A stretch of DNA of 44,240 nt, taken from Candidatus Omnitrophota bacterium. Its GTDB lineage: Bacteria; Omnitrophota; Gorgyraeia; 2-01-FULL-45-10. The notes beneath the pieces are model-generated. The model did no database searches and was not told where the DNA came from. It was given only the letters and a program-made list of their open reading frames with translations. Positions 7,342 to 24,817 of the stretch are shown piece by piece (position 1 is the first letter of the stretch; each line of letters starts with the position of its first letter). A program made the position numbers and the translations under genes. The DNA lies in contig JAPLMF010000019.1 of NCBI GenBank assembly GCA_026387155.1, positions 1 through 44,240 of the forward strand, in the 5' to 3' direction.

Positions 7342-7352
7342 TGGCGTCCCTG
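7342..7352. repeat. att core copy 1: orphan copy of the last 11 nt of tRNA-Arg(UCU)
   Basis: tggcgtccctg is the reverse complement of CAGGGACGCCA (3' acceptor strand, discriminator and CCA). It is identical to 24818-24828. Confidence 0.8.
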
Positions 7353-7604
7353 TTATAGGGCTCTCTGATACTTATCTCTGATGTTAATGGCGCTATTATA
7401 TAACAATTGTCTATAGTTGGCGAGATATTTATAGGAATCAGAGAGATGAGTTTTTAGAGAGATGTCCGGACATGTACGTGTGCTCAAAAACTGTCCGTTT
7501 TGTCCGGTAATTTTGAGGACAAAAAGTCACAACTATCTGAAACACAACGAGATAAAAATATCCGAGGATGGAGAGACGGACATTTCTATTTTTAGAGCTA
7601 TTAT

Positions 7605-9791
7605 CTATTCTTCTCCCTTAATTATCTTTGTCATCTCGGAGGAAAGATCGCTCAAACGTTTTGCTTCTTCTCGGATTTTCTGAATTAATTCGTTTCGTTT
7701 TGATTTATCGTTAATATTGTCAGGTTTCGGTAACTCTGCAGCAGCCTCTGAAATAATCTTTAGTGGGGCTGGAAGATCAAGGGAGAATGTACTTAAAAGC
7801 AGATTTCGTAGACGTTCGCTTTCAATATCCGCTTCAGTCTTTATTGCCGTAGCAGCAAGTTGAGCGCCTTCTACTGCCGATGCGGTTTGATTTACGAATA
7901 TTTCAAGTGTATGTAGTTGATCTGGATCGGTTAACTGCTTCTCTTCTCTTGGAAATAGGCCAATAACACCTACAGTCTTTTCAGCGCCTGTTAATGGCAA
8001 ATAAATACCGCGTGAGCCGGGAAGCGTGTCCGTATCCTTTCCCGCCATCTTTTTATGCTCATATACCCACTGAGCCACAGCTTCTTCGTTTGGATTTAAT
8101 GGTAAGGCCTGAGAATCACCGAAACGGATCGTAATCCCTTTGCCCTTGGTAGGCGTAAAAATAACAGCCGGGCATTTAAAGAACTCTTGGACATAATGAA
8201 CAGATATCTGAAATATTTCGTCCAGATTGGATGTCTTGGCTAAATCCCTGTTCAAATAATACAATGCCTGAGTCCTATTTTCCCGCAGTCGCATAGCCAT
8301 GGTCTGTTGCCTAAGACGGCCTGTGAGGCTTCCTATTATAACGCCTACTACTAACATGACGCCGAATGTTATGAAATATTCAACATTGGCTACGGCAAAT
8401 GTGAAATAAGGCGGAACAAAGAAGAAATCAAAACATAATACACTTAATATCGAGGCTAGGATTGACATTCTACGTCCATATCGAAAAGCTATCCATGTAA
8501 CACTTAAAAAATAAACCATTATCAGGTTTACAAGACTTATATACTTAAATAATAGACCATCTATTGCAGTGCAAATGACAATCGTGCCGATAGTCCACAG
8601 CAGTCCTTTCCATGGAAATGGCCTAAGCGTGGGAGCTTCATGTTTCATTGGAATCTCCTGTGACTCCCCGCTCATTAAATATAAATCTATTTCGCCGCAT
8701 TTTCGCGCAAGCGCATTTATTACAGACCCAAAGAGAAATTCATGCCATTTAGGTTTCCTAGGTTTTCCGATAATTATCTTTGTGATATTCCTAGAGCGCG
8801 CATAGTCGATAATTGTTTCTGCAACATTCAAACCACTAAGAGTAATGGTTTCGGCTCCTAACCGTTCAGCTAAACGCATCATTTCGGCTATATCTGCCTT
8901 GCCTCTTCTATTGGGTATTTGAGAAATCGGATCAACATAGGCAACTATCCATTCGACACCGATACTGGAAGCAATGCGCTTTCCTGCTCGTATCAGCTGC
9001 ATGGCGCGTGGGCTCGCGCTTATACATACCAAAAGCCTATCTCTTACATTCCAAACCTTTGTTATAGAATAGGCCTGTTTATAGGATCGCATCCTAGCGT
9101 CTACAGTTCTGGAAGTATACTGAAGAGCCAATTGGCGAAGAGCAATAAGATTTCCTATCTGAAAGAAATTTTGGATTGCCCGCTGGGCTTGTTCGCCAAG
9201 GTATACCTTGCCTTCCTTGAGACGTTTAAGCAGGTCTTCAGGAGAGAGATCTACTAATTCTATATCGTCTGCCTTTTCTACAAAGGTATCTGGAACCGTT
9301 TCACGCACTGTCACGCCTGTAATCTGAGCCACAACATCATTTGCACTATCGCAGTGTTGAACGTTTAGAGTCGTATAAACATTGATGCCTGCGTCCAAGA
9401 GTTCTTCTACGTCCTGCCAGCGTTTCGGATGACGAGAACCGGAAGCATTAGAGTGAGCCAATTCGTCAACCAATATTGTAGAGGGACACCTCTTTAAGGC
9501 CGAGTCAACATCAAATTCACTAAGTTTGATATTTTTATACGGCACTTCCTTGCGAGGCAGAATTTCAAGGCCTTCTAATAAAGCGTCTGTGTCGGCACGA
9601 CCATGCGTCTCTATATAGCCGACAACGACATCGATGCCCTCTTTTTTCAGAACTCTTGCAGCTTCAAGCATAGAATAGGTTTTCCCTACTCCGGCCATAG
9701 CCCCGAAGAAGATCTTAAGCTTTCCGCGGTTAGATTCTTCGCTCTTCACCCGCGCTAGAATTTCCTCTATGTTGTTTTTTTCATTTGCCAT
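7605..9791 (-). CDS. kdpD: KdpD-like sensor lacking kinase function (KdpD-N, USP, 4 TM, GAF, degenerate HisKA; no HATPase domain)
   Basis: N-terminal GAMAGVGKTYSML Walker-like KdpD domain, a TM block and a GAF-like region. The C-terminus reads ERLRNLLLSTFSLDLPAPL where canonical KdpD has ..SHDLRTPL. The ORF ends about 50 aa later. Confidence 0.8.
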   Translation of the reverse strand: MANEKNNIEEILARVKSEESNRGKLKIFFGAMAGVGKTYSMLEAARVLKKEGIDVVVGYIETHGRADTDALLEGLEILPRKEVPYKNIKLSEFDVDSALKRCPSTILVDELAHSNASGSRHPKRWQDVEELLDAGINVYTTLNVQHCDSANDVVAQITGVTVRETVPDTFVEKADDIELVDLSPEDLLKRLKEGKVYLGEQAQRAIQNFFQIGNLIALRQLALQYTSRTVDARMRSYKQAYSITKVWNVRDRLLVCISASPRAMQLIRAGKRIASSIGVEWIVAYVDPISQIPNRRGKADIAEMMRLAERLGAETITLSGLNVAETIIDYARSRNITKIIIGKPRKPKWHEFLFGSVINALARKCGEIDLYLMSGESQEIPMKHEAPTLRPFPWKGLLWTIGTIVICTAIDGLLFKYISLVNLIMVYFLSVTWIAFRYGRRMSILASILSVLCFDFFFVPPYFTFAVANVEYFITFGVMLVVGVIIGSLTGRLRQQTMAMRLRENRTQALYYLNRDLAKTSNLDEIFQISVHYVQEFFKCPAVIFTPTKGKGITIRFGDSQALPLNPNEEAVAQWVYEHKKMAGKDTDTLPGSRGIYLPLTGAEKTVGVIGLFPREEKQLTDPDQLHTLEIFVNQTASAVEGAQLAATAIKTEADIESERLRNLLLSTFSLDLPAPLKIISEAAAELPKPDNINDKSKRNELIQKIREEAKRLSDLSSEMTKIIKGEE

Positions 9792-9805
9792 ATCTATAAT
9801 ATACT

Positions 9806-10387
9806 CTATTTTTTACTCGAATCCAAATCCATATTTACCTTCAACACATTCACAACAGGCTCTCCGATTAAACCAAAAAGACGTCCATTTGTGTTTCGAT
9901 CAATAATATTTTTTACTACATTTACAGAAAGCCCTCTATGCTTTGCAATTCTAGAAATCTGATAATACGCTCCGGCTAAACTTATATGCGGATCAAGCCC
10001 GCTCGCCGACGAAGTCACCAAGTCTACAGGTATAGGCACCTTGTTTTTGGGATCGGCTGCACGCAGTTTTTCAATACGCGCCTTCACAGTCTCTAAAAAC
10101 AGGGGATTAGATGGGCCGATGTTTGAACCTAATGACGAACTAGAATTATAAGGCACGGGCGATGTAGCCGACAGCCGTCCCCATAGATATTTAGGATCAT
10201 CAAATGGTTGTCCTATAAGGGCTGAACCAATTATTTTTCCATCTCGATATATAAGGCTACCGTTAGCTTTGGTATGGAAAAAAGCTTTAGCAATTCCTGT
10301 GACGAAAAGCGGATACAGAATGCCGGTAATTATCGTCAGGATTATGAAAACAGAAATAGCGGATCTTAGCTCTTTAAACATAGTCAT
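9806..10387 (-). CDS. kdpC: K+-transporting ATPase subunit KdpC
   Basis: 193 aa with an N-terminal TM helix and typical KdpC motifs (GSALIGQ, SGLDPHIS). It sits directly downstream of kdpB. Confidence 0.9.
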   Translation of the reverse strand: MTMFKELRSAISVFIILTIITGILYPLFVTGIAKAFFHTKANGSLIYRDGKIIGSALIGQPFDDPKYLWGRLSATSPVPYNSSSSLGSNIGPSNPLFLETVKARIEKLRAADPKNKVPIPVDLVTSSASGLDPHISLAGAYYQISRIAKHRGLSVNVVKNIIDRNTNGRLFGLIGEPVVNVLKVNMDLDSSKK

Positions 10388-10389
10388 TC

Positions 10390-12471
10390 CTATACAAAAT
10401 GTAAAGCAGCCAACAACATATCAATTAGTTTTATCCCAATAAACGGTGCAATAATACCACCTATACCATAAATCAAAAGGTTATCCCTTAAAAGGCGGTT
10501 TGCCGACATCGGTTTGTAAGGTATCCCTCGTAGAGCTAATGGAATAAGCATTATTATGATAATCGCGTTAAAAATAACCGCTGATAAAACAGCGCTTGCC
10601 GGTGTTGTAAGGTGCATTATATTAAGCGCGTTTAATTGCGGATACGTTCCAACAAATGCCGCGGGAATAATAGCAAAGTATTTTGATACATCATTAGCTA
10701 TGCTAAAAGTAGTTAACGAGCCTCTCGTCATAAGTAACTGTTTTCCAATCTCAACGATTTCAATCAATTTTGTAGGATTAGAGTCCAGGTCTATAAGATT
10801 TCCGGCCTCTTTCGCAGCCTGCGTTCCTGTATTCATGGCAACGGCGACATCCGCTTGTGCGAGAGCAGGTGCGTCATTAGTACCATCGCCTGTCATGGCG
10901 ACAAGCCTACCGCCAAGTTGCATTTCTCGAATAAGCTTAAGTTTTGTTTCAGGTGTTGCTTGCGCCAAAAAATCATCCATCCCCGCCTCGGCAGCTATAG
11001 CCGCAGCTGTTAACGGATTATCCCCTGTGATCATTATAGTTTTGATTCCCATGCGGCGAAGTTCCGCGAAACGTTCTCTTATTCCGCCCTTCACTATATC
11101 CTTCAACTGAATAACACCTAATACATTTTTATGTTCCGCTACTACAAGCGGCGTGCCGCCAGTCTTGGATATGTTCTGAATATTAAATTTCAAGTCTTCC
11201 GGGAAAAGCCCTCCGAGCTTTTTTACATATCCCTCTATCGCATCGGCTGAACCCTTCCTGATCTGCCTTCCATCACCCAAATCCACTCCGCTCATTCTTG
11301 TCTGGGCAGTAAAAGGGATAAATTTCGCTTCGAGTTCATGAATATGACGTTCTCTAATGTTGTATTTCTCTTTAGCTAATATCACTATGCTTCTGCCTTC
11401 AGGGGTTTCGTCAGATAGCGAAGCCAATTGTGCCGCATCCGCCAACGCTTCAACTGTTACGCCTTGAGCAGGTATAAAAGCCACTGCTTGTCTGTTGCCA
11501 AGAGTTATCGTGCCTGTCTTATCAAGTAACAGAACATCGACATCTCCTGCCGCTTCAACGGCACGACCTGAAGTAGCTATGACGTTTGCCTGAATCATCC
11601 TGTCCATACCGGCTATGCCTATGGCAGGTAGAAGGCCCCCTATAGTAGTTGGTATTAGACATACGAGTAGTGCCACTAATACAGTTACCGTAATTGGTAC
11701 ACCATGCCCTGAGCTTAAGACGCTGTAAATCGAAAATGGCAGAAGTGTAACCGTAGCCAAAAGGAATATTATCGTAAATACCGCAAGTAGAATGCTGAGG
11801 GCTATTTCATTGGGCGTCTTCTGTCGTTTTGCGCCTTCGACCATCGCTATCATATGATCTAAAAATGTTTCTCCAGGATTTGAGCTGACACGCACTACCA
11901 GCCAATCCGAAAGCACCCGAGTTCCTCCGGTAACAGCGTTACGATCTCCGCCCGATTCGCGTATTACGGGTGCGCTTTCTCCAGTAATAGCACTTTCATC
12001 AACTGAAGCTACTCCTTCAATAATCTCGCCGTCCATCGGTATAATGTCACCTGCTTCGACTAAAACAACATCTCCTTTTCGGATCGTCGTTGCTGAAATC
12101 GTGTCGTAACTTGAGCCATATTTTGGGCTTGAGAGTTTCTTTGCTGGAGTATCACGCCTTGCTTTCTTAAGGCTTGCTGCCTGAGCCTTGCCGCGGCCTT
12201 CGGCCATTGCCTCCGCGAAATTAGCAAATATCAATGTAAACCAAAGCCATAGCGTTATGGCCAAGATAAAACTTGCCGGCGCCTCCCCGTGTGCAAAAAT
12301 AGCCTGAACATATAACCCTGTAGTGAGAATGCTGCCTACCAATACCACAAACATTACAGGATTCTTAATTTGATGCCAAGGATTCAATTTTTTTATCGAA
12401 TCGACAATCGCCGGAATTACAATTGCGGGATCGAATAATGATTTTGTTTTATGATGTCTCTTTATTTTCAT
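10390..12471 (-). CDS. kdpB: K+-transporting P-type ATPase subunit KdpB
   Basis: 693 aa with the DKTGTIT phosphorylation motif, TGDN and [10 protein letters not shown]. Confidence 0.95.
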
Positions 12472-12479
12472 ACATAACC

Positions 12480-14225
12480 TTATAGAGAAGTAAGCATCAA
12501 ATGCTCAGCAATAGGCCCAAGCGCCAATGCCGGGATAAATGTAAGCGCACCTACAATTAATATAACCATGACCAGAAATACAATAAAAAGCGGCGTATGC
12601 GTAGGCAGTGTCCCCTGGCTTACAGGCACTATTTTTTTCCTAGAAAGTGAGCCCGCAATCGCAAGCGCAGGTATTATAAGCCAGTATCTGGCGAAGAACA
12701 TCGCTAATCCTTGAGCAATATTATAGAAAAGTGTATTCGTAGTTAATCCAGCAAACGCGCTTCCGTTGTTATTTCCTGCCGAAGAAAATGCATATAATAC
12801 TTCGCTAAATCCATGCGGCCCGGGGTTTAAGATTGAACTTTTAGCAGCAGGCACAATTACCGAAACGGCTGTGCCTATAAGAACAATCATCGGCGGTATT
12901 AGAATCATGAGAGAAGCCATTTTCATTTCATATGCCTCTATTTTCTTTCCTAAATATTCCGGAGTACGGCCAATCATAAGGCCTGAGATAAAGACAGCGA
13001 CAATAATAAATGCAATCATACCGTAAAGTCCTGAACCAACTCCGCCAAATATAACCTCTCCTAATTGCATAAGCCACATCGGAATAAGGCCGCCTAATGG
13101 CATATAAGAATCATGCATTGAGTTGACCGAACCATTGGAAGCCGCGGTTGTAGCCGTTGCCCATAAAGCGGAATTTGCGATGCCGAAGCGCGACTCCTTG
13201 CCCTCCATATTCCCACCTGGCTGCATAGCGCTTGATCTCTGGTCAATTCCTAATTTACTTAACAGAGGATTTCCCTGTTGTTCAACATGCGTACATAGCC
13301 AAAGGCATGGAATAAAAATAATTAACATGGCAGCCAGAATTGCCCAGCCCTGACGTTTGTCTTTAACCATATATCCAAATGTATAGCATAGTGCAGCAGC
13401 TATCAAAAGTATGGCCAGAACTTCCAAGAAATTTGACAGAGGCGTAGGATTCTCAAATGGATGAGCAGAATTAACATTGAAAAATCCCCCTCCGTTAGTC
13501 CCTAACTGTTTAATGGCGATCTGCGAGGCGGCAGGGCCAAGAGCAATCATTTGTTCAGACATAACTTTTCCAGTCACATCTTTAGTCGTCTCGATAAGCG
13601 CTGCTTTTACGCTCGGAGCGAATGTCTGGACAGCGCCCTGGGAAACCAATACAATGGAAAATATAATCGCCAGCGGAAGAAGTATATACAATGTTGACCG
13701 GACAAGATCTACCCAGAAATTGCCTATAGTTTCCGTTTGTTTTTGAATAAATCCTCTTATCACAGCCACAAGGACTGCCATACCTGTTGCCGCGGACACA
13801 AAGTTTTGTACGGTTAAAGTCAGCATCTGAGTAAAATAGCTTAGAGTAGTTTCACCACCGTAACTTTGCCAGTTCGTATTTGTCGCAAAGCTAACTGCAG
13901 TATTAAATGCAAGATCCGGTGTTACCGGTGGCATGGACATGGGATTTAAAGGAAGATGCATTTGAAGACGCTGAATAATATAAACGACTACTATGCCAAT
14001 AATATTAAATATCATCACTGCCACAGCATATGTTTTCCATGGCATGCTTATTTCAGGATTAATGCCAGATAAGCGATAGGTTAATCTTTCAATGGGCCCA
14101 AGCCATATGTTAAGACCTGTCGGCTTTCCTTCGTATATGCGGGCCATATAAGTTCCAAGCGGCTTAACTAATAGTACCAATACCACAAGATAGATTCCGC
14201 CTTGAATTATATTGTTCCAATTCAT
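12480..14225 (-). CDS. kdpA: K+-transporting ATPase subunit KdpA
   Basis: Polytopic protein with KdpA-type selectivity loops ([18 protein letters not shown]). I place the start at MNWNNIIQG (14225), where ATGA overlaps the kdpF stop. The 25-codon upstream extension in the ORF track overlaps kdpF in another frame. Confidence 0.9.
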
Positions 14226-14314
14226 GAAAATATCTCCGGCTTCAATAGGGCAATCAACAAATAGGCAAATAAAAGTAGTGAAATTGTGCCCCCTATCCAA
14301 TAGATAATAGTCAT
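14222..14314 (-). CDS. kdpF: KdpF small subunit
   Basis: 30-aa peptide [30 protein letters not shown]. The ...YLLxALLxPExF ending is typical of KdpF. A GAGGG SD lies 9 nt upstream, and the TGA stop overlaps the kdpA ATG. Confidence 0.8.
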   Translation of the reverse strand: MTIIYWIGGTISLLLFAYLLIALLKPEIFS

Positions 14315-14329
14315 ATTATTGCCCTCACC

Positions 14330-14410
14330 CTATAATTTGCTGCATAGCGCAATAAACACAAAAGAGGTTATCGCAAGAGACAAAATAATACCTACAAATA
14401 AAATGTCCAT
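14330..14410 (-). CDS. Second small hydrophobic peptide (26 aa) between the riboswitch terminator and kdpF
   Basis: MDILFVGIILSLAITSFVFIALCSKL, with an AAGGAAG SD 8-9 nt upstream of the ATG. Not in the ORF track because it is too short. Confidence 0.4.
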   Translation of the reverse strand: MDILFVGIILSLAITSFVFIALCSKL

Positions 14411-14425
14411 AATTTAATCTTCCTT

Positions 14426-14460
14426 AAAAACAAAAACCAGAGGATGCTTAGCTCTGGTTT
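14426..14460 (-). terminator. Intrinsic terminator (expression platform of the c-di-AMP riboswitch)
   Basis: On the minus strand: AAACCAGAG-CUAAGCAUC-CUCUGGUUU followed by UUGUUUUU, immediately 3' of the aptamer. Confidence 0.8.
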
Positions 14461-14461
14461 G

Positions 14462-14618
14462 CATTCTCTCATATTGGCTTACGGGGTTAGCTGTCGAGCT
14501 CGGGTTGAGTGACCCTAATCTACTACTCTGTAGATATTTAGATATTCGCCCTAAGGTCTGTCGTAGACCGTACTTTGGTTTCCCCGTTTCCTTCTAAATA
14601 CAGCAATTAAAAGGAATG
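14462..14618 (-). promoter_or_regulatory. c-di-AMP riboswitch (ydaO/kimA class) in the kdp leader
   Basis: The minus-strand RNA contains the class-defining blocks ACGGGGAAACC, UUAGGGCGAAUAUCU, GUAGAUUAGGGUCAC and AACCCGAGCUCGACAGCUAACCCCGUAAGCCAAUA. It is closed by CAUUC...GAAUG. The blocks match my recollection of the crystallised ydaO aptamers. Confidence 0.85.
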
Positions 14619-14634
14619 TAGCTTATTAATGTTG

Positions 14635-14663
14635 ATTATAAATCTCAAAACCCTTTGTGTCAA
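14635..14663 (-). promoter_or_regulatory. Consensus sigma-70 promoter of the kdp operon
   Basis: On the minus strand: TTGACA (14663-14658), a 17-nt spacer and TATAAT (14640-14635). The -35 element overlaps the stop of the sigma-like gene. Confidence 0.8.
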
Positions 14664-15037
14664 TATAAGATACAATCAGACTTTTTTATCTCTTCTTTTA
14701 TAAAATCAATAATGAATCCGTCAATTCTTTTCCAGATATAATAACTGAATCGGACGGGCTTTGAATTACTATGTTTGTCCTTATATCGCAAATCGTAAGT
14801 TTTAATTTTATCATAAAGGATAGGTATAGCCTGCGAGAGGATGTCTTCCCCAAAACGAACACGATAGGTTGAAAACGCTATCTTATAAATACGAAAGATG
14901 ACAAAACCTATATGGCGCAGTACAATCTCATCTTTCTTTGCCCTAGAACGTCCTTGTGCTTGTTTAATAAGCCGTCTTTCTTGATAAAGAGAAATTTTAG
15001 GATATTTTCGTATAATCTGGCGGTAAGTTTCGAACAT
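14660..15037 (-). CDS. Sigma-70 region-2-like small protein with no region 4 (element B)
   Basis: 125 aa from MFETY (the start shared with the paralog at 22290). The pattern LYQERRLIKQAQ.G...A..EIVLRHIGFV...DILSQAI..LY..I..YD......KPVRFS.YIWKRI...I.DFI resembles sigma-70 regions 1.2-2.4. Confidence 0.55.
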   Translation of the reverse strand: MFETYRQIIRKYPKISLYQERRLIKQAQGRSRAKKDEIVLRHIGFVIFRIYKIAFSTYRVRFGEDILSQAIPILYDKIKTYDLRYKDKHSNSKPVRFSYYIWKRIDGFIIDFIKEEIKKSDCILY

Positions 15038-15098
15038 AGTTGCTGTATTATACAATCCAAATATCCGAAACCAAATAAAAAATATCTCACCTATCGCC

Positions 15099-15129
15099 TT
15101 GACTTGTGGCAGTTAGTATGGCCTATATG
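15099..15129 (+). promoter_or_regulatory. Candidate promoter of the DUF2924-recombinase operon (element B)
   Basis: TTGACT (15099-15104), a 19-nt spacer and TATATG (15124-15129). The block is nearly identical to 22370-22400. Confidence 0.35.
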
Positions 15130-15157
15130 TCATGAGGTTAGAGAGGGGGTTTTGACG

Positions 15158-15613
15158 ATGAAAGAGACGATTTTAGAGCAAATATTAATCTTAAAAGAAG
15201 CGTCTATTTCGGAGCTTCGGAAGAAGTATTCGGAGGTCTTTGACGGTAAGGAAGCTCCTTCGAATAACAAGATGTGTCTTTGGCAAAGGATCGCTTATAG
15301 GATACAGGAACTTGAATACGGCGGGCTATCGCAGGAGACACAAGATAAGGTTAATGAAATGGCTATAGAATACGATCCGATCAATAACAAGGCACTGAGG
15401 CCAAACGCCGCAAAAATACATCGGCTTTCACGCGATCAACGTCTTCCGATACCGGGAACTGTAATCACAAAAGAATATAAAGGCATTACGATAGAGGTCA
15501 AGATCCTAGAAAAGGGCTTTGAGTGTAACGGCAAGACTTATAAATCTCTTACAGCTATCGCGAAAGAAATCACAGGCTGTCATTGGAACGGATATTTATT
15601 CTTTAACATGTAG
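15158..15613 (+). CDS. DUF2924-like protein (element B)
   Basis: 151 aa from MKETILEQ. Paralog of 861-1316 and 22429-22884, ending ...ITGCHWNGYLFFNM. Confidence 0.6.
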   Translation: MKETILEQILILKEASISELRKKYSEVFDGKEAPSNNKMCLWQRIAYRIQELEYGGLSQETQDKVNEMAIEYDPINNKALRPNAAKIHRLSRDQRLPIPGTVITKEYKGITIEVKILEKGFECNGKTYKSLTAIAKEITGCHWNGYLFFNM

Positions 15614-15620
15614 ATAACTT

Positions 15621-16841
15621 ATGAATAATCTTAAAAAGAGAATCTATTGTGCCATCTACACACGCAAATCCACAAGCGAAGGATTGGACCAGGACTTTAC
15701 GTCTCTGGATGCTCAGCGTGAATCCGCTGAAAGCTATATCGCGAGTCAAAAATCCGAAGGCTGGATTATGCTGCCAACGCTCTATGATGATGGCGGCTAT
15801 ACCGGCGCCAATACCGATAGGCCTGCCTTGCAAAAGCTCATGTCCGATATTAAGAATGGCGGCATTAATTGCGTGGTTGTATATAAAGTAGATCAATTAT
15901 CACGATCGCTGCTAGATTTTACGCATCTATTGGAATTTTTCGAAAAACATAACGTTGCATTCGTGTCAGTTACTCAAGCCTTTAATACAAATACATCGAT
16001 GGGACGGCTTACTTTGAATATCCTTTTGTCTTTCGCCCAGTTCGAGCGAGAAATTATCAGCGAGCGCACCAAAGACAAAATGGGCGCCGCCCGCAAGAAA
16101 GGCCGATGGGTTGGCGGTATACCCATTCTTGGCTATGACCTCGATAGGATTAACCACAAGCTCGTCATAAACCCTAAGGAAGCCGGAATTGTACGAGATT
16201 TATTCGATACCTATATCAAAGAAAAGTCGCTATTACAAACGGCTGTGATGCTCAACGAAAAAGGCTATAGACGTAAGACCTATACCCCGCCTAAAGGCAA
16301 GACGATGGGTGGCCAAAAATTCCAGACTACGACGATGCAATATATTATAAAGAACATTGCATACACAGGCAAAATAAAATATGCTGGAGTAATATATCCC
16401 GGCCTACATGAGCTGATTATATCCGAAGAGAAGTTCCAAAAGGCTCAAGAAATACTCGTCAATAATCGCGTACGGCGCGAGAAAATCGGGCATTCGAAGA
16501 ATATGGCATTACTTAGCAAGATCTTGCGTTGTAAGGCCTGTGATAAAGTAATGTTCCATACCTATACGATGCGCGGCAAATATAAGTACCGTTACTACGT
16601 ATGCCAGAGTGTTCAAAAACAAGGCTCGAATTCGTGCCCTACCAGATCGGTAAATGCACAGGCTATAGAAGACGCCGCAATAGACTGCCTTCGCAAGATG
16701 CCTCAGAAAGAGTTAAAAGAAATTTTGGCTATCTGGGATGTACTATTCCCACAGCTAAAACATGAGGCATTAAAACTCATGGTTAAAGAAGTAAAATACG
16801 ACGGAATGACTGGGAAGTTGGATATTACCTTAAATAACTAG
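15621..16841 (+). CDS. Large serine recombinase (element B) with Gln in place of the conserved DRLxR arginine
   Basis: 406 aa with YTRKSTSE, FAQFEREIISERT and a zinc ribbon (CKACDK...YYVCQS...CP). The motif reads VYKVDQLSRS (CAA at 15894-15896), whereas copies A and C read VDRLSRS. Confidence 0.85.
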   Translation: MNNLKKRIYCAIYTRKSTSEGLDQDFTSLDAQRESAESYIASQKSEGWIMLPTLYDDGGYTGANTDRPALQKLMSDIKNGGINCVVVYKVDQLSRSLLDFTHLLEFFEKHNVAFVSVTQAFNTNTSMGRLTLNILLSFAQFEREIISERTKDKMGAARKKGRWVGGIPILGYDLDRINHKLVINPKEAGIVRDLFDTYIKEKSLLQTAVMLNEKGYRRKTYTPPKGKTMGGQKFQTTTMQYIIKNIAYTGKIKYAGVIYPGLHELIISEEKFQKAQEILVNNRVRREKIGHSKNMALLSKILRCKACDKVMFHTYTMRGKYKYRYYVCQSVQKQGSNSCPTRSVNAQAIEDAAIDCLRKMPQKELKEILAIWDVLFPQLKHEALKLMVKEVKYDGMTGKLDITLNN

Positions 16842-16848
16842 GGTTTTT

Positions 16849-17223
16849 ATGAATACGGAATTAAAATATGAATTTAAGGTCGATTTAAAGCCGGTAAGAC
16901 ATAAGTCGCGTAGATATTACATGGCTAAGATATCGAATGAGCCAAGGTTGAGGCAATATTTAGTGCTCGCGTATCAGATACAGGATGCGCTCGAGAAAAA
17001 TACCGATACTTCCCTACTTCAAGTAGCTGGATGGCTAAATATGACATACACACGTATAAAACAGATAACGAACCTGCTACTTCTATGTCCCGGAATACAG
17101 AAGGAGCTATTATTGTTAAACACAGATAAAATCCGTCAGCTTACAGAGCGTAAAATCCGCGATATAGCCAAAGAAATCGACTGGCAAAAACAGCTCTCAA
17201 CCTGGAATAACCTCACGCATTAG
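16849..17223 (+). CDS. ParB/KorB-like HTH protein (element B)
   Basis: 124 aa. SLLQVAGWLNMTYTRIKQITNLLLLCPGIQKELL resembles the ParB HTH plus the 'LL.L.P.IQ' segment. It aligns to the C-terminal ~100 aa of recombinase A. Confidence 0.5.
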   Translation: MNTELKYEFKVDLKPVRHKSRRYYMAKISNEPRLRQYLVLAYQIQDALEKNTDTSLLQVAGWLNMTYTRIKQITNLLLLCPGIQKELLLLNTDKIRQLTERKIRDIAKEIDWQKQLSTWNNLTH

Positions 17224-17317
17224 CCCATACCCCTTCCAATGTTATAAAAGAAATATCTGGTAATTTTGTGTTGTAATTTTTTTACTACATGATATACTTA
17301 TAATAGACAAAGAGGGG

Positions 17318-17695
17318 GTGATTAAAATGGATGAACGTAAAACATTCGGCTCGTATTTTAAGGATAGAAGGATAGAGCTGGGCCTGACGCTGCGCAAATT
17401 CTGCGAGAAACACAGCATGGATCCCGGAAATTTAAGTAAAATCGAAAGAGGCGTGTTGCCGCCGCCCAAAGATGAGATATTGAAGAAATATGCTCATCAT
17501 CTCAAGCTGAAAGAGGCGTCAAATGAGTGGTATGAATTCTTTGACCTTGCGGCCGCGGAATCAGGCCGGCTGCCAAAGGAGCTCAGAGAAAAAGAGATCG
17601 TGGCGAGGATGCCTTTCTTATTTCGCACAATCAGGGGTAAGAAGATCTCAAAAGAGAAGCTCGATAAGCTGATAAAATTGATCAAGGAATCGTAA
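17318..17695 (+). CDS. XRE-family HTH regulator
   Basis: 125 aa. LGLTLRKFCEKHSMDPGNLSKIERG is a Cro/C1-type HTH. A GAGGGGG SD lies upstream. Confidence 0.8.
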   Translation: MIKMDERKTFGSYFKDRRIELGLTLRKFCEKHSMDPGNLSKIERGVLPPPKDEILKKYAHHLKLKEASNEWYEFFDLAAAESGRLPKELREKEIVARMPFLFRTIRGKKISKEKLDKLIKLIKES

Positions 17696-17698
17696 AAA

Positions 17699-18295
17699 AT
17701 GTCAGATGTATTTGTTCCTTATAAAAACTACGACCATATAAAGAAGATAGCTTCGGATTTCCTGCATAAATACCATCCAAGGGATATCTTTCCCACTCCG
17801 ATCGAAGAGATCATAGAATTTAAGCTCAATATTGATATCATTCCGATCCCCGGACTTCACGAGATATTGGAAGTCGACGGTTTTATATCGGCGAATTTAT
17901 CGAATATCTCCGTAGACGAGTACGTGTATAAGCACAGGCAAGGCCGCTATCGCTTTACCCTCGCCCATGAGGTCGGCCATGCCATTATGCATGAGGATGT
18001 TTATAAACACCGCGGGTTCAATACGACCGTAGATTGGAAGGATTTTATGGAGACCTTCCCGGAAGATGAATGGGCCTGGCTAGAGTGGCAGGCGAATCAA
18101 TTCGCCGGATTAGTTCTCGTGCCGAGCCATCATCTGGAGAAGAAATTAAAACATCATTCAAAACAAATCAGGGCTTTAGGCATCAAGAATGATGACGTTA
18201 TCATGGATAGGGTCGTTGAATTATTAGCACGAGATTTTGTGGTTTCAAGAGAAGTTATATTAAGAAGAATTGATAAAGACGCCAAAAAAGCCTGA
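17699..18295 (+). CDS. ImmA/IrrE-family (DUF955) zinc metallopeptidase
   Basis: 198 aa with HEVGHAIMH (HExxH) and a downstream E...ANxFA. It starts 4 nt after the stop of the XRE gene. Confidence 0.8.
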   Translation: MSDVFVPYKNYDHIKKIASDFLHKYHPRDIFPTPIEEIIEFKLNIDIIPIPGLHEILEVDGFISANLSNISVDEYVYKHRQGRYRFTLAHEVGHAIMHEDVYKHRGFNTTVDWKDFMETFPEDEWAWLEWQANQFAGLVLVPSHHLEKKLKHHSKQIRALGIKNDDVIMDRVVELLARDFVVSREVILRRIDKDAKKA

Positions 18296-18471
18296 TTTTA
18301 CGACTAAACCACCCAAAAAGTAAACCAGAGATAAAGAGAGGTATTAAGAGGAGATCTTTGCTATATATTGACTATATCACGGTAATTCGTCGAGTTGCGT
18401 TGGTATAGACAGAATAGCTCAAACTACTTAAATATTTTGAGTTTTCTCGACGACAAATCATAACAAAGTAA

Positions 18472-18489
18472 CCGACGTTAAAACGTCGG
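18472..18489 (-). terminator. Hairpin downstream of att core copy 2 (weaker equivalent of the element-borne tRNA terminator)
   Basis: On the minus strand: CCGACGT-TTTA-ACGTCGG followed by TTACTTTGTT. Same relative position as the hairpins at 3172-3210 and 24744-24780. Confidence 0.4.
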
Positions 18490-18534
18490 CTACATTCAAA
18501 TATTCTCTACCTCTCTGTTTCGAGGCAAAATAAA

Positions 18535-18544
18535 TGGCGTCCCT
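18535..18544. repeat. att core copy 2 (junction between elements B and C)
   Basis: tggcgtccct matches the last 10 nt of tRNA-Arg(UCU). It is flanked on the left by the B near arm and on the right by the C far arm. Confidence 0.8.
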
Positions 18545-18849
18545 ATTATAGGGCTCTCTTATACTTATCTCTGATTTCGATAGCGTTATTATATAGTCAT
18601 TATCACTGATTGGCAAGAATTTTTGAAGATTCAGAGAGGCGAGTTTTAGAGAGATATCCGGACATGTCTGCGTGCTCAAAAACTGTCCGTTTTGTCCAGT
18701 ATTTTTAGGACAAAAAATCCATAACTTATTGTCATGCAGTCAAATACGAATGTCCATTGTACCAGACCCGGACATTTGTCTATTTTGCTTTCACGCTTTT
18801 ATCAAAAGTCGATAAAAGGTCCTTTAAAAATGGACATTAAGCATATCGT

Positions 18850-19341
18850 TTAATGGTGAACGAATAACTCTTTATTCTTTAATGCGGCAACTCTACCTTT
18901 CTGCAGCGTCAGCTTCTTCTGCTCATCCGCGAAAGTTGTTGTTACCTGCTTAGTCGCCGGCTGTGATCCATTGGTTGCATGAGCTTCTTCAGCCGTTGAT
19001 GTAGGCTGTTCATTTAGGGATACCTCGACATCTTTCCTCACATCCGCCATAGTTTGTTTTTTTTCGGTAAGCGTTTTATCAAGAGTTTCTTGTCTTTCTA
19101 GCTGCTTTTTTATATTCTCTTTGGCTTCATCGTCTGTAGGAAAAATATTCCGGGAAATTGTATAGCCGGGTTCGACGACAGTCTCTTCTTCTTTAATGAC
19201 CTCCTTTTCCACCGGCTGGCTTAATTGTTCCTTCGCTTTATGTATCCCTGAAAAAATCACCCACACGACCATAATTATAACCCCTATAATTATGCCAGCG
19301 CCTACCAACTTATCTGTCGAAATATTTTTATTCATGCTCAT
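18850..19341 (-). CDS. Single-pass membrane protein with a charged, low-complexity ectodomain
   Basis: 163 aa with one TM helix (GAGIIIGVIIMVVWVIFSGI). It is the last gene of the pseudopilin operon. Confidence 0.45.
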   Translation of the reverse strand: MSMNKNISTDKLVGAGIIIGVIIMVVWVIFSGIHKAKEQLSQPVEKEVIKEEETVVEPGYTISRNIFPTDDEAKENIKKQLERQETLDKTLTEKKQTMADVRKDVEVSLNEQPTSTAEEAHATNGSQPATKQVTTTFADEQKKLTLQKGRVAALKNKELFVHH

Positions 19342-19368
19342 TATCCAGGTTCTTGCTGGCTGTCTTTC

Positions 19369-20742
19369 TCAAAGTTGTTTTAGCGAAATTTTACGGTATC
19401 TTAGACCCCCGCTATCCTGCGCAGGAGTAAAAGACGGCGGTATTAAACTAGTAAGCCTATCGTCATAATATGGAATTTGAAGATAACCAAATTGCAGAGC
19501 ACCGCTTCCACTAAAACATCCAAACACGGTGGCGGACCATTGAGCCATTACTCCGCCATATTGCACCAAGTTTCCTAGCACGCCTGGAACCGCTGTCATG
19601 TTTTCTAGGTAAAATGAACCGTTGAGCGCAACTATATACGCATCGACCTCCTTATTACCTGACCCAAGATCATTAGGAAAAATAACGTTTGTTTTCGCAA
19701 CCAACCCCAATACATCGGTACTGGCAGGGTTAGGTGCGCTCGGGGAAGTATCGTGATATATTATACTATCTGAAGTCCAGATATTTTGGTCACAACCAAC
19801 CGTTACCTGACCGTTTAAGGCGCCCTTAACATCAACTTCCCCGCCCGTGACATAGATAGCGCCATTTTGGGGAATTGGCATGTTGGTAGTCGTCTTATAT
19901 TGGTTATTATTTGTAACATTCATGGTGCCGTTTGCAAGAAATTGGATGCTAGTATCGGTATGCGTCCCACCCGGGCCGCGATAATATCCGGGCTGTGGGT
20001 TTTGTGGATCATTCATATTACGGCCATCTATTAACAGCCCACTTCCTGGCTGGCTTGCGGCGGTTTTAATCGCGGTCAGTAGTGGCGCAGGGTCTGGCAA
20101 AGGAACGGGTTGAACCCCAAGCCACAGGCCCGCGTTAAACTGTGGTTGGTCGACTCCCGGGGAGTCATAGTATGATACTTGAGTGTCTGCTACAGACACT
20201 GCTCCATTAAATATAGGGTTACCGGCAACATAAAGATGATCGTTAACCTGTAGCGGACCATTAACAATATTGCCTGTTACCCAATAGGATGCATATCCTT
20301 CCCAACCGGGGTAATAACAAATTTCAGTGTTGGTAATGTAAGCCCAATGTTGAAACGAGGTTAATTGAACTGTCAACTGTAAGGTCTTTGACACACCTTT
20401 ATAGGTCCCTATAGATGTTATACCATATGTAGGCCAAGTCCCGGAAGCTAGTACCTGATAGCTCACGGCATAGCTACCCGCATCATTTGCCCCGTTGACA
20501 TTATAATTTTTACTGAAAGACAGCAGCGAAGGAGTCCACCCGCCATCCCGTAAATGTTTATAGCCATCAGCTATACCGGCATCCGCAATACAATATGCGC
20601 GCATAGCATTGCATTTTGCATACGCCAGAAATATGTCATTACTACAAATGGCAAGCAATGTCGTACAAAGAAAGATGACCAATAATAGTATCGGCAATGT
20701 CATAACTAATGCGAAGCCTCTTTTATCCACAAACGACCTCAT
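19369..20742 (-). CDS. PilX/GspK-like large pseudopilin
   Basis: 457 aa. The N-terminus KRGFALVMTLPILLLVIFL is a prepilin-like hydrophobic helix without Glu5, as in GspK/PilX. The ATGA start overlaps the upstream gene. Confidence 0.55.
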   Translation of the reverse strand: MRSFVDKRGFALVMTLPILLLVIFLCTTLLAICSNDIFLAYAKCNAMRAYCIADAGIADGYKHLRDGGWTPSLLSFSKNYNVNGANDAGSYAVSYQVLASGTWPTYGITSIGTYKGVSKTLQLTVQLTSFQHWAYITNTEICYYPGWEGYASYWVTGNIVNGPLQVNDHLYVAGNPIFNGAVSVADTQVSYYDSPGVDQPQFNAGLWLGVQPVPLPDPAPLLTAIKTAASQPGSGLLIDGRNMNDPQNPQPGYYRGPGGTHTDTSIQFLANGTMNVTNNNQYKTTTNMPIPQNGAIYVTGGEVDVKGALNGQVTVGCDQNIWTSDSIIYHDTSPSAPNPASTDVLGLVAKTNVIFPNDLGSGNKEVDAYIVALNGSFYLENMTAVPGVLGNLVQYGGVMAQWSATVFGCFSGSGALQFGYLQIPYYDDRLTSLIPPSFTPAQDSGGLRYRKISLKQL

Positions 20743-21266
20743 ACTGGATGATTCCTTAAATATGCAGAGCCCTCCACTGCGCCAAGCACTGTTTTGCCGC
20801 TTATTACTTGAGATACGCTGACATATATGCTGATACAGAGGGGAGCACCTACATTCAGTGTACCAAAAGTTAACCCCACCATAGCACCCGGCGGAGCAGT
20901 ATACAAAGTATTTTGTACCCCATTTGTATCGGAATAGATAAGCCTGGTGCCTCCATTGCTTAAAGAATATGTCCGCTTAATAACGCCGTCAGTTCCAATA
21001 AATGTAAGCTTACTGGTGTCGCTATAAAAAGTAACCGATGCGGCTTCGGAGAGGCGAAGCCCGTTTGTACAGCCTTTTCCCTCCGTTATCTTACTCATAA
21101 TAACTGCCGCGTCTCTCTGAAACGTTGCCCTAGCAATATCTGTGGCGAAGATCTGTTTTACAAGAACGAAGCCGGTCAATGCAGTGGCGAATAACGTAAT
21201 TAGCAGGGCGCTTGCGATCAGAAGCTCCGTTAAAGAAAAAGCCTTTTTATCAGATAATATTATCAT
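20739..21266 (-). CDS. Prepilin-type N-terminal domain protein (minor pilin/pseudopilin)
   Basis: 175 aa. DKKAFSLTELLIASALLITLF is a class III signal with Glu5, but Ala rather than Gly at -1. Confidence 0.65.
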   Translation of the reverse strand: MIILSDKKAFSLTELLIASALLITLFATALTGFVLVKQIFATDIARATFQRDAAVIMSKITEGKGCTNGLRLSEAASVTFYSDTSKLTFIGTDGVIKRTYSLSNGGTRLIYSDTNGVQNTLYTAPPGAMVGLTFGTLNVGAPLCISIYVSVSQVISGKTVLGAVEGSAYLRNHPV

Positions 21267-21271
21267 GGACT

Positions 21272-21730
21272 TTAGTTAAGTTGCGGTTCATTAGCTATAT
21301 CGGTAGTAAGAAACTCCTGCTTAGTTACCGGTATACCATTCATTTTTTCTTTCCAACTGACTTTGATCTGGACTGTTTTTCTATAACTACAAGTAGGATC
21401 ATTGTATGGTGGAAGAACTGTTACGGTAACGGTTGCGCCGGACATATTACAACCAATGTATGCTGGCGGCAAAAATTGTTGGTTGACAATATATGGGAAC
21501 CCGGCCACACGCTGCATATCCAATACGGTGCGGGCGGCATATATAGCCTGAAGCTTATGTTTTGAATAAGAAATGAAATATTGCTGTGTATATATAATGG
21601 CCTCAAACGATATAAACGCTATGGCTATTAACAAACAGCTTATTACCACTTCCACCAGAGTAAAACCTTTTTTATGCGATCTAGACCGTCTTATAAAGCT
21701 TAGTATCTTCATAGTTACAGCTTTTTCCAA
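21272..21730 (-). CDS. Prepilin-type N-terminal cleavage/methylation domain protein
   Basis: HKKGFTLVEVVISCLLIAIAF is a canonical G|FTLxE motif. The start may instead be the MKILSF Met at 21712. Confidence 0.75.
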   Translation of the reverse strand: MEKAVTMKILSFIRRSRSHKKGFTLVEVVISCLLIAIAFISFEAIIYTQQYFISYSKHKLQAIYAARTVLDMQRVAGFPYIVNQQFLPPAYIGCNMSGATVTVTVLPPYNDPTCSYRKTVQIKVSWKEKMNGIPVTKQEFLTTDIANEPQLN

Positions 21731-21838
21731 AATTAAGTGTATGCTGCTCTTTATGTTCCAATTGAATAATTAATTAATTCGATTCCAAGGAGATATAATC
21801 CATCCTCCCTTGTGAGCAACAGAGACTATTTATAGATA

Positions 21839-21867
21839 AGTATACCCCCCCCCTTACGTTTATGCAA
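21839..21867 (-). promoter_or_regulatory. Candidate promoter of the pseudopilin operon with a G9 tract in the spacer
   Basis: On the minus strand: TTGCAT (21867-21862), a 17-nt spacer (aaacgtaa plus G9 at 21853-21845) and TATACT (21844-21839). Confidence 0.55.
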
Positions 21868-21876
21868 ATATTTTAG

Positions 21877-22290
21877 TCACAGAGGAATTTCACAACCGAA
21901 TCCTCGCCAATCAAGGCTTTGTTGCTGTCTTTCCCCGCTAAGTTCTTCCTTTAAATAATCGATGATAAATCCATCTATTCTTTTTCATACATAGGAACTA
22001 AATCGGACGGGTTTTGAATTGCCGTATTTGTCTTTATATCGTAAATCGTAGGTTTTGATTTTAGCGTATAGAATAAATATAGCCTGAGAAAGCATATCTT
22101 CCCAGAAACGGGCGCGATAGGTAGGGAATGTTATCTTATTGATCCGGAAGATGACAAAGCCTATGTGGCGTAGGACAAGTTCGTCTTTTTTTGCCTTAGA
22201 ACGTCCCTGCGCTTGTTTAATGAGGCGTCTTTCTTGGTAAAGGGAGATTCTAGGATATTTATGTATAAGGTGGCTATAGGTTTCGAACAT
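21877..22290 (-). pseudogene. Sigma-70 region-2-like gene (element C) interrupted by an in-frame TGA
   Basis: The ORF stops at ...VRFSSYV* (TGA at 21985-21987), exactly where paralog B has Trp (..RFSYYIWKRIDGFIIDF). The same frame continues KRIDGFIIDYLKEE... to a stop at 21877. Confidence 0.7.
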
Positions 22291-22369
22291 GGCGGTATAT
22301 TATACAATTCGCATATTTGAAGCCAAACTGAAAAGAGCGAGAACCCGCCAGAAATCTGCTCCTATCACC

Positions 22370-22400
22370 TTGACTTGTGGCAGTTAGTATGGCCTATATG
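22370..22400 (+). promoter_or_regulatory. Candidate promoter of the DUF2924-recombinase operon (element C)
   Basis: TTGACT (22370-22375), a 19-nt spacer and TATATG (22395-22400). Confidence 0.35.
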
Positions 22401-22428
22401 ACATGAGGCTAGAGAGGAGATTTAAGCC

Positions 22429-22884: not shown

Positions 22885-22892
22885 GCGACGAT

Positions 22893-24113: not shown

Positions 24114-24121
24114 GATATTTT

Positions 24122-24780: not shown

Positions 24781-24817
24781 TTGTATTCTATGACTCTCTG
24801 TTTCGAGGCGAAATAAG

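Follow-up and report, generated by a model that had tools for sequence, protein, structure and literature searches.

A DUF2924–serine recombinase integration unit of small elements at tRNA 3' ends in Omnitrophota

Layout of the locus

The stretch of DNA analysed here (the window) comprises 44,240 nucleotides of contig JAPLMF010000019.1 from a Candidatus Omnitrophota bacterium (assembly GCA_026387155.1), and very probably holds three copies, A, B and C, of a site-specific integration unit that belongs to small integrative elements of this phylum. The conserved unit is a DUF2924 gene followed by a large serine recombinase (LSR) with a C-terminal ParB-type helix-turn-helix (HTH) domain. B and C are tandem insertions at the 3' end of tRNA-Arg(UCU), and A belongs to a third element, at tRNA-His, the remainder of which lies beyond the left end of the window. 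The 3' ends of tRNA-His and tRNA-Arg(UCU) both point towards the modules. The landmarks of the locus are as follows.

3246-3322, minus strand: tRNA-His(GUG), called by ARAGORN; target of element A
4898-7333, minus strand: asmA-like gene, start codon at 7333
7342-7351: attL core TGGCGTCCCT, 8 nt from the asmA-like start codon (7333)
7352-18544: element B, 11,193 bp, with kdp cargo
18535-18544: core TGGCGTCCCT at the B/C junction, the hybrid attachment (att) site of the tandem array
18545-24827: element C, 6,283 bp, with pilin-like cargo
24818-24894, minus strand: tRNA-Arg(UCU), called by ARAGORN; its last 10 nt (24818-24827) are the core
24932-25008, minus strand: tRNA-Pro, called by ARAGORN

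Element B consists of a far arm, genes for a KdpD-like sensor, kdpC, kdpB and kdpA, a cyclic di-AMP (c-di-AMP) riboswitch, a sigma-like gene, the DUF2924 and LSR genes with a gene for a 124-residue (124-aa) protein, an XRE/ImmA pair and a near arm. Element C holds four cargo genes, a sigma-like gene and the same DUF2924-LSR-124-aa unit. A sequence-only reading of the window had described a four-gene module of sigma-like gene, DUF2924, recombinase and HTH gene in B and C. The DUF2924, LSR and 124-aa genes are indeed found together at 15158-17223 in B and 22429-24496 in C with the divergent sigma-like gene upstream, but not as a unit of four. A possible fourth copy appears on another contig of the same metagenome-assembled genome (MAG; locus tags NTZ95_01455-01485).

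The DUF2924-recombinase unit

The genes of the unit and those directly adjoining it are listed below.

784-857 (A), 15079-15157 (B) and 22350-22428 (C), plus strand: promoter/leader of the DUF2924-LSR operon, CCTTGACTTGTGGCAGTTAGTATGGCCTATAT...AGAGAGG
858-1316, plus strand: DUF2924 of copy A, likely ATG at 858 (mechanical start of the open reading frame (ORF), 753); PF11149, E 3e-40
1325-2935, plus strand: LSR of copy A, 536 aa, with the HTH domain fused (residues ~410-536); Resolvase, Recombinase and Zn_ribbon_recom domains
15158-15613, plus strand: DUF2924 of copy B
15621-16841, plus strand: LSR of copy B, 406 aa, with the same three domains
16849-17223, plus strand: 124-aa ParB-type HTH protein of copy B, a detached LSR C-terminal domain by the comparison below
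17318-17695, plus strand: XRE-type HTH gene (Pfam), in copy B only within the window
17699-18295, plus strand: ImmA/IrrE M78 peptidase (Pfam), in copy B only within the window
22429-22884, plus strand: DUF2924 of copy C; Pfam E 2e-39, AlphaFold2 model
22893-24113, plus strand: LSR of copy C, 406 aa, with the same three domains and the active-site motif intact
24122-24496, plus strand: 124-aa ParB-type HTH protein of copy C; AlphaFold2 and Foldseek

A genome scan with a DUF2924 alignment gave 79 loci, about 50 of them in Omnitrophota and then Phycisphaerae, Lentisphaeria and Alphaproteobacteria, and the loci were analysed with phmmer and ARAGORN. An LSR lies directly after DUF2924 in 75 of the 76 loci that have downstream room, across four phyla. 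The two genes overlap or are separated by gaps of 7-8 nt, the spacing also seen in A, B and C, so the tight coupling claimed from the sequence is confirmed. The ParB-like domain is fused to the LSR in 41 Omnitrophota loci and separate in four; weak signals of it also occur at the C-terminus of certain alphaproteobacterial LSRs and, in Lentisphaeria, in small ORFs. Between B and C, protein identity is 92% for the LSR, 75% for DUF2924 and 72% for the 124-aa protein, and between A and C it is ~60%, 50% and, for the HTH domain, 37%. The unit has three parts, not four: the HTH belongs to the recombinase, and the sigma-like gene would be cargo machinery unrelated to it. The sequence-only reading had also given copy A a separate HTH gene next to a divergent regulator. 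Its DUF2924 and 536-aa LSR are present at 858-2935, but the HTH domain is fused to the LSR, and the supposed regulator is a 199-aa protein (62-661, minus strand) for which Pfam, NCBIfam and PHROGs give no match and the 79 related DUF2924 loci no homologue.

The LSR of copy C matches PF00239 (E 1e-37), PF07508 (E 4e-16) and PF13408 (E 7e-11), as does that of A, as well as phrog_95, labelled 'integrase' (E 1e-112). The best NCBIfam likenesses are CcrB and XisF, both far under the cutoff. The LSR would perform the recombination chemistry. A and C carry the motifs YTRKST and VDRLSRS, whereas copy B reads VDQLSRS, with Q at residue 92, where all eight other aligned LSRs (C, A and six relatives) have an Arg, a residue we take to be catalytic by comparison with resolvases. 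Judged by this substitution, the copy B recombinase may be catalytically impaired, and element B may be fixed or moved only with the enzyme of C, whose unit looks intact. In the LSRs of B and C the segment from the last Cys region to the terminal beta-strands is only ~30 residues long; in relatives it is longer and variable.

The 124-aa proteins of B and C align collinearly with the last ~130 residues of the copy A LSR. By this alignment, and with the domain fused to the LSR in 41 of the 45 Omnitrophota relatives, the 124-aa gene is taken to be a detached C-terminal domain of the recombinase, not the independent accessory it had been thought to be. Its frame relative to the LSR gene differs between B and C (+1 vs +2); it is therefore a separate gene, and a conserved programmed frameshift, considered as the origin of the protein, is ruled out. 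The AlphaFold2 model has a predicted local distance difference test (pLDDT) score of 82, with the first ~20 residues of low confidence or disordered. The top 35 PDB matches of the model in Foldseek are all ParB/Noc/Spo0J/KorB/SopB DNA-binding domains (probability ~1, TM score 0.55-0.64, root-mean-square deviation ~2 Å over 87 columns), which bears out at fold level the ParB-like HTH read from the sequence. Pfam gives no match, nor does the PDB by sequence or profile search; the protein does match phrog_14161, a phage family labelled 'recombinase'. As the protein has the HTH domain only, without the ParB N-terminal CTPase (ParB/Srx) domain, and its candidate sites are direct repeats, not parS-type palindromes, it is a ParB-type DNA-binding domain and not a ParB protein. 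Stand-alone homologues form at least 120 clusters at 90% identity, and a profile search gives 2272 representatives at E <= 1e-3, mostly of 120-150 aa with some fused at 535-653 aa. In the fused A form, the stretch that matches the low-confidence N-terminus of the 124-aa protein reads ...LDITLQDGKTHSFTVRL...; this suggests that in B and C the chain is split inside a beta-hairpin at the recombinase C-terminus and that its two parts would re-associate.

DUF2924 matches PF11149 over its full length at 135-138 bits, against a gathering cutoff of 31.2. In the AlphaFold2 model, an N-terminal four-helix domain is joined by a disordered, conserved linker (YDPINNK...RDxRLPxPGT) to a C-terminal beta4-alpha2 domain. 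There is a weak sequence match to the GT-1 trihelix domain, and part of DUF2924 has been equated with the RAMA DNA-binding domain (PMC11342252). In the literature searched, DUF2924 is mentioned only in passing and always in connection with Wolbachia. From its near-constant pairing with the LSR, DUF2924 would be an obligatory accessory subunit that aids complex assembly or sets direction.

The operon leader CCTTGACTTGTGGCAGTTAGTATGGCCTATAT...AGAGAGG precedes DUF2924 in A, B and C and also in the metagenome loci L080 and L001. The window contains 16 occurrences of AGAGAGG where 4.4 are expected; nine or ten of them fall in element control regions, which together span ~2 kb. The XRE and ImmA genes of B have no match in any of the 79 loci and recur in the counterpart of B in L080/L081; the pair is likely an induction switch. 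They also lie between the unit and the non-coding arm, which in B does not follow the module directly as had been stated. Exact look-ups of the C recombinase and of protein P0179 in a contig index gave no match.

A split unit (DUF2924, a 462-aa LSR and a 124-aa protein) is also seen at tRNA-Lys(UUU) in L084 (an ERZ27250635 contig; 1188-3430, 8714-10357), in an element that resembles a prophage and has a terminase; the unit is therefore used by phages too and not by small islands only.

Attachment cores and empty sites

The core, TGGCGTCCCT on the plus strand and AGGGACGCCA (CCA included) on the tRNA strand, equals the last 10 nt of tRNA-Arg(UCU) and occurs three times, at 7342-7351, 18535-18544 and 24818-24827. 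To the left of the cores at 18535 and 24818 are homologous near arms, and to the right of those at 7342 and 18535 are homologous far arms. The assignment of B to tRNA-Arg(UCU) stands in that B shares this core, but B faces only a 10-nt fragment of the tRNA, which is its junction with element C. An independent metagenome contig, L080/L081, carries other cargo but has the same core and a tandem array there.

When metagenome contigs were searched with the asmA-like protein, L087 (81% identical) and L089 (87%) were found, both of which have the same synteny of rdgB, tRNA-Pro, tRNA-Arg(UCU) and asmA with no element, and with the tRNA-Arg 3' end (in L087 at 8992-9001) 8 nt from the asmA ATG. L087 likewise has a tRNA-His with no recombinase after it, and L086 carries an element with DUF2924 and a fused LSR at tRNA-His. 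By the direct comparison that these empty sites offer, B and C and the A-type elements are to be regarded as insertions. Direct repeats, the tandem array and the empty sites in relatives agree with the earlier claim that the modules are integration modules of tRNA-targeting elements. An exact-pattern metagenome scan for the reconstructed empty attB gave no match, and in the genome loci almost no tRNA-end direct repeats of 10 nt or longer were found within 7 kb upstream; either the elements are longer than this flank or their cores are short.

Among the Arg elements, the identity common to attB-like and attP-like junctions is confined to the 10-nt core. The shared block in L001, which targets tRNA-Val, is only (AG)TGGTGGG, 7-9 nt, and the middle junction of L080 reads TGGCGTCCCC and differs at core position +9. 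The short block and the +9 mismatch suggest that strands are exchanged in the first ~7 nt of the core (NNNN-CCA of the tRNA), so the crossover would lie within the last ~7 nt of the tRNA gene. A weak GAG(G/A)...CTCTC dyad relation in the Arg elements is absent in L001 and is not claimed.

At two sites, L080 1-60 (reverse strand) and L088 ~1230-1320, tRNA-Arg(UCU) is interrupted in the anticodon after T34 by a common sequence, reading ...ggtgcggtaag and then CTAAGCAGAGG. ARAGORN calls no tRNA at these interrupted genes and Rfam detects no group I intron.

Element arms

Each unit is separated from the tRNA end by a near arm, and the opposite end of an element is formed by a far arm.

2936-3245: near arm of copy A, with a terminator-like hairpin at 3177-3211 (minus strand) and CCTCTC motifs between hairpin and tRNA end
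7352-7604: far arm of element B, with a promoter TCGCCA-17-TATAAT from 7423 to 7395 (minus strand) and CTCTC/GAGAG and TGTCC repeats
18296-18534: near arm of element B, with a terminator from 18493 to 18468 (minus strand) and CCTCTCT at 18510-18516
18304-18327: paired repeats CTAAACCA/GTAAACCA in the near arm of B, followed by the invariant GAGATAAAGAGAGG at 18328-18341
18545-18800: far arm of element C, with a promoter TTGCCA-17-TATAAT from 18616 to 18588 (minus strand)
24497-24817: near arm of element C, with a terminator from 24778 to 24752 (minus strand) and CTCTCT at about -24
24521-24528 (inverted), 24586-24593 and 24602-24609: three copies of CTAAACCA in the near arm of C, with GAGATAAAGAGAGG at 24610-24623

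When 29 Omnitrophota near arms are anchored at the tRNA end, an A-run and hairpin are seen at about -66 to -36, with a stem sequence that varies through compensatory changes. Read on the tRNA strand, the hairpin is followed by a T-run, and a scanner calls minus-strand terminators in A, B and C; by these signatures the near-arm hairpins are regarded as replacement terminators for the tRNA. In the window copies they lie ~34-41 nt from the tRNA end, where a hairpin had been described. CCTCTC at about -31 to -25 and GAGAG at -14 to -10, between hairpin and tRNA, are kept regardless of the target tRNA, and the reported spacer motifs, CTCTCT (at -24 to -19) and an A-rich run before the core, are also found. 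Beyond the terminator hairpin, RNAalifold showed no covariation in support of near-arm structure, and all columns of a long-range AGAGAGG/CCTCTCT pairing are invariant. Nor was a conserved small ORF detected in these arms of B and C.

The far arms of B and C are 72-78% identical to each other, 80-88% to those of L080/L081 and 73-79% to that of L001. Their best-conserved block is a minus-strand sigma70-like promoter (TTGCCT-17-TATAAT in L001), flanked by CTCTC/GAGAG motifs, which faces asmA and points outwards through the core. Where the site is empty, only 8 nt separate tRNA-Arg from the start of asmA, which must therefore be co-transcribed with the tRNA-Pro and tRNA-Arg genes; the far-arm promoter plausibly restores asmA expression after insertion. 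A far-arm-like remnant with an outward promoter block also adjoins asmA in L091 (~4560-4790). Its core differs (AGGCGGGCCA), it lies ~1 kb from an intact tRNA-Arg(UCU), and it is possibly a decayed element.

In the split lineage, in which the ParB-like protein is encoded separately, the near arm has two direct 8-nt repeats with a 14-16-nt period that adjoin the invariant GAGATAAAGAGAGG ~207 nt from the core, and a third, inverted copy is present in some. Both copies of the pair change together between elements, and in 10 elements the repeats track the subtype of the ParB-like protein and not LSR or DUF2924 similarity, as follows.

MTYTRIKQI(T/M)N with CTAAACCA: B and C of the window (winB, winC) and L080b
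MTPPRI(C/S)QI.. / KEPLWEKQ with ATTAACT: L080a, L093 and L094
MTPPR(I/V)SQILN / KEI(D/N)WEKQ with ATTAAATG: L001, L084 and L092
MTKARLSQIMN with GTTAAATG: L014

L080a is a telling case, as its LSR is 91% identical to that of winC and its DUF2924 is nearest to that of L080b (83%), yet its HTH and repeats are of another class. This correspondence hints that the ParB-like subunit reads the paired arm repeats, which would be candidate arm-type sites. An extension of the paired-repeat analysis to fused-type arms failed, the distal arm being organised differently there. A CTAAACCA pair at 40360-40382, considered as an att remnant, was rejected: the stretch translates as PKPSVPKPG and lies next to smpB and the tmRNA gene, a coding coincidence.

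tRNA targets

A facing-strand tRNA is found 150-450 nt after the unit in 28 of the 41 Omnitrophota loci, the targets being His (15), Glu (7), Gln (3), Asp (1), Leu (1) and Val (1). Nine of the 22 proteobacterial loci have a facing tRNA, in every case tRNA-Gln(UUG). In a neighbour-joining tree of the LSRs the targets cluster but change repeatedly: there is one Gln clade, His is widespread with a nested Asp/Glu subclade, and the split clade spans Val, Lys and Arg targets at 66-77% LSR identity. The tree supports repeated switching of targets among His, Glu, Gln, Asp, Val, Lys, Leu and Arg. It agrees with the anchored near arms on the retargeting between tRNAs, with element-side features kept, that the sequence-only reading had proposed.

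Proposed mechanism and alternatives

On the proposed mechanism, strands would be exchanged within the last ~7 nt of the tRNA gene, and the tRNA would be regenerated from a copy of the exchanged bases that the element carries. The near arm would supply a new terminator for the tRNA and the far arm an outward promoter to re-drive asmA, cut off from the tRNA operon by the insertion. The LSR would do the chemistry, while the ParB-like domain or subunit would bind the paired 8-nt repeats ~210-240 nt inside the near arm. DUF2924, co-translated with the LSR and with two putative DNA-binding domains, would be accessory to complex assembly or direction. We tentatively go further and suggest a distinct, phylum-spanning class of serine integrases with a multi-part, lambda-like intasome, in which the HTH would read repeats ~200 bp from the crossover and DUF2924 would be needed. 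If true, this would be a serine integrase with long, complex att sites and built-in retargeting among tRNA 3' ends.

Several points weigh against this picture. Eleven of the 41 Omnitrophota loci have no tRNA within 1.5 kb, and tRNA targeting is not known for phage WO or for some other DUF2924-LSR pairs. No clear dyad symmetry, as expected of a classical LSR attP, is seen around the core. The elements are known from contigs alone, and since the B/C junction is attP-like, a circle would equal a tandem array there. A fold search of the DUF2924 model against the PDB gave no meaningful match, so its DNA-binding nature rests on one literature statement and a weak sequence match, and the E-values that Foldseek gives for the ParB fold are modest (0.03-0.5). 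With about 100 nt between the gene and the repeats, simple linkage could also explain why repeats track subtypes.

A possible alternative, which we likewise hold with reserve, is that DUF2924 is a recombination directionality factor (RDF), or excisionase, in an arrangement like that of lambda xis and int; the two genes would be transcribed together for excision, and the integrase would be made alone from an internal start for integration. This would suit the position of DUF2924 immediately upstream of the LSR in nearly all loci and a ParB-like domain that is usually fused and so not a switchable factor. Element C has no other conserved small gene as an RDF candidate, and the motif-rich, conserved disordered linker of DUF2924 could dock on the recombinase. 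However, DUF2924 looks like a two-domain DNA binder. Known serine-integrase RDFs are unrelated to it, contact the coiled-coil by protein-protein binding and as a rule have an expression of their own. A single conserved promoter block was found, and it precedes DUF2924, although no scan aimed at an internal LSR promoter was made. It seems rather unlikely that DUF2924, the ParB-like protein or both are regulators or maintenance factors and that the LSR alone recombines simple sites; as examples, they might repress their own operon, control the outward promoter or handle the excised circle as ParB/parS does. ParB-type HTH domains are classically partition or repressor modules, and the enrichment of AGAGAGG, in the operon leader and both arms and mostly in element control regions, together with the CTCTC/GAGAG motifs around the outward promoter, would fit such a role. 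Serine integrases are moreover regarded as needing short sites and no cofactors (PMC12884075). Covalent fusion of HTH and recombinase in most relatives nevertheless argues for action inside the recombinase-DNA complex, and the split of B and C inside an apparent beta-hairpin of the recombinase C-terminus and the near-universal operon coupling of DUF2924 across four phyla also count against regulators.

It is very improbable that the sigma-like protein functions in recombination or targeting as part of a four-gene module, the arrangement first proposed. Its gene does adjoin DUF2924 divergently in B, C and one L080/L081 element, but it is found in none of the 79 DUF2924 genome loci, nor in copy A, nor in two of the three modules of L080, and its copy in C carries a premature stop. 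In L082 and L083 it occurs with no recombinase in view, so the family exists with or without a recombinase nearby, and in every context examined it lies upstream of, and co-directional with, the adjacent cargo. The gene would thus be a cargo-operon leader outside the integration unit. Local duplication or metagenome mis-assembly as the source of the repeated modules is hardly credible: the window is a MAG contig, and repeats can mislead assemblers, but the copies have diverged (DNA 72-89% identical, DUF2924 75%, HTH 72%) and carry different cargo, a core bounds each copy, the independent contig has the same tandem structure, and empty sites exist.

Relation to known systems

Comparison of the phage records by tblastn identified a DUF2924 homologue next to an LSR in Wolbachia phage WO and in Acidithiobacillus caldus phage AcaML1. 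In AcaML1 (JX507079) the unit resembles that of the window: Gp4 is a DUF2924 protein (32% identical), Gp3 a 459-aa recombinase 'large subunit' and Gp2 a 127-aa 'small subunit', which shares an L..LLL.P.I ... DW..Q motif with the 124-aa protein (weak pairwise BLASTP, E 1.2). The AcaML1 module also points at the prophage end, and the prophage attB is a tmRNA gene, with a tRNA-like 3' end and 10-bp direct repeats (PMC3826726). Unlike the window elements, AcaML1 is a 59-kb phage and not a small cargo island, its Gp3 lacks the zinc-ribbon cysteines, and an additional gene, Gp1, separates the small subunit from the att end. In phage WO, DUF2924 likewise adjoins the LSR, but identity is ~30%, the context is a prophage and no sign of tRNA targeting was seen. 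The statement that the arrangement had not been described is therefore only partly upheld, as it is annotated in AcaML1 and the DUF2924-LSR pair has been noted in WO; no functional study of AcaML1 Gp4-Gp3-Gp2 or of DUF2924 in phage WO was found in the literature searched.

The classical large serine integrases (phiC31, Bxb1, A118, TP901-1) and CcrB/XisF have the Resolvase, recombinase and zinc-ribbon domains and the short-core crossover of the window LSRs. For integration the classical enzymes manage without a cofactor on sites of ~40-50 bp; their RDF is encoded elsewhere, and their targets are mostly protein-coding genes. As a rule, serine integrases are said to avoid tRNA genes, and they are prized as tools on the view that they require short sites alone, without cofactors. 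The window LSRs differ in an apparently very short coiled-coil segment, in the added ParB-type HTH, as domain or subunit, and in the coupled DUF2924 gene, and their elements in conserved arms of 240-350 nt and tRNA 3' ends as targets. In tRNA 3'-end integration with gene regeneration, int next to att, a small partner gene upstream, long arms with repeated candidate sites and tandem arrays, they resemble heterobivalent tyrosine integrases of the lambda/P4 type. The likeness would be one of logic only, as chemistry and family differ and arm binding, N-terminal there, would here lie in a C-terminal ParB-type HTH. The tycheposons of Prochlorococcus (10.1101/2020.12.28.424599) are also cargo elements at a few tRNAs, among them Arg(UCU) and Pro(UGG), that pile up in tandem into islands. 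They differ in that 910 of 937 have tyrosine recombinases and many have replication genes, they belong to another phylum, and DUF2924 has not been reported in them.

The clade, found in Omnitrophota, Planctomycetota, Lentisphaerota, Proteobacteria and phages AcaML1 and WO, departs from the serine-integrase norm in its DUF2924 pairing, ParB-type HTH, tRNA/tmRNA 3'-end targets and many target switches. Should the partners prove necessary, DUF2924 (PF11149) would acquire a function, an arm-type architecture could be demonstrated for serine integrases, and a natural series of close enzymes with different tRNA targets would be at hand for the study and engineering of site choice. The elements would follow a 'seamless insertion' design in which the tRNA end is regenerated, a new terminator is provided and an outward promoter serves the orphaned gene.

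Cargo and neighbouring genes

The cargo features of B and C all lie on the minus strand.

7605-14615, minus strand: element B cargo (Pfam), with KdpD-like sensor, kdpC, kdpB and kdpA, riboswitch included
14461-14615, minus strand: c-di-AMP riboswitch preceding kdpA (Rfam RF00379, 71.5 bits)
14660-15055, minus strand: sigma-70 region-2-like protein, 131 aa, heading the cargo operon of B
18850-21730, minus strand: element C cargo, four genes, at least two with prepilin N-terminal methylation motifs
21985-22290, minus strand: sigma-like gene of C, with an in-frame stop at a conserved Trp codon

The kdp operon (7605-14300) and c-di-AMP riboswitch lie wholly inside element B, and a potassium-uptake system therefore travels with its regulator as island cargo. 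The motifs in the cargo of C match Pfam N_methyl at E 1e-5 and 0.013. Together with the defence-like genes of L080, these would be useful cargo moved in an uncultured phylum.

The sigma-like protein has weak matches to phrog_351 (E 2.5e-5) and NCBIfam FliA (E 0.022), no Pfam match and no region 4. Sequence and profile searches of the PDB gave nothing or hits of E ~0.3-0.5 only, one of which, by profile, is sigmaF residues 14-83 (E 0.45), in register. The gene in C does not run over 21877-22290 as had been read; its ORF spans 21985-22290, and the stop (..RFSSYV*KRIDGF..) cuts a frame that continues to ~21880, so this copy is to all appearances truncated or a pseudogene. The family has ~1200 members, of a region-2-only-like form of 120-145 aa, and stands at the head of cargo operons in Omnitrophota mobile DNA. 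Behind it lie kdp (B), pilin (C), MutS-like (L080), metal-resistance (L082) and phage (L084) genes and the gene of a 1641-aa protein (L083). The cargo of the L080 tandem elements (2670-6200, 10435-14952, 19881-20375) comprises a 1176-aa B12/radical-SAM protein, a 1505-aa MutS_V-domain protein and a Vsr endonuclease with a DNA methylase, and part of it looks defence-related.

Farther along the window, smpB (40752-41243) lies just upstream of a tmRNA gene (41305-41717, plus strand), for which an unusually long tag peptide, ADKYNVPATVNELLNTMQVVPSAYVPAALAI, is predicted.

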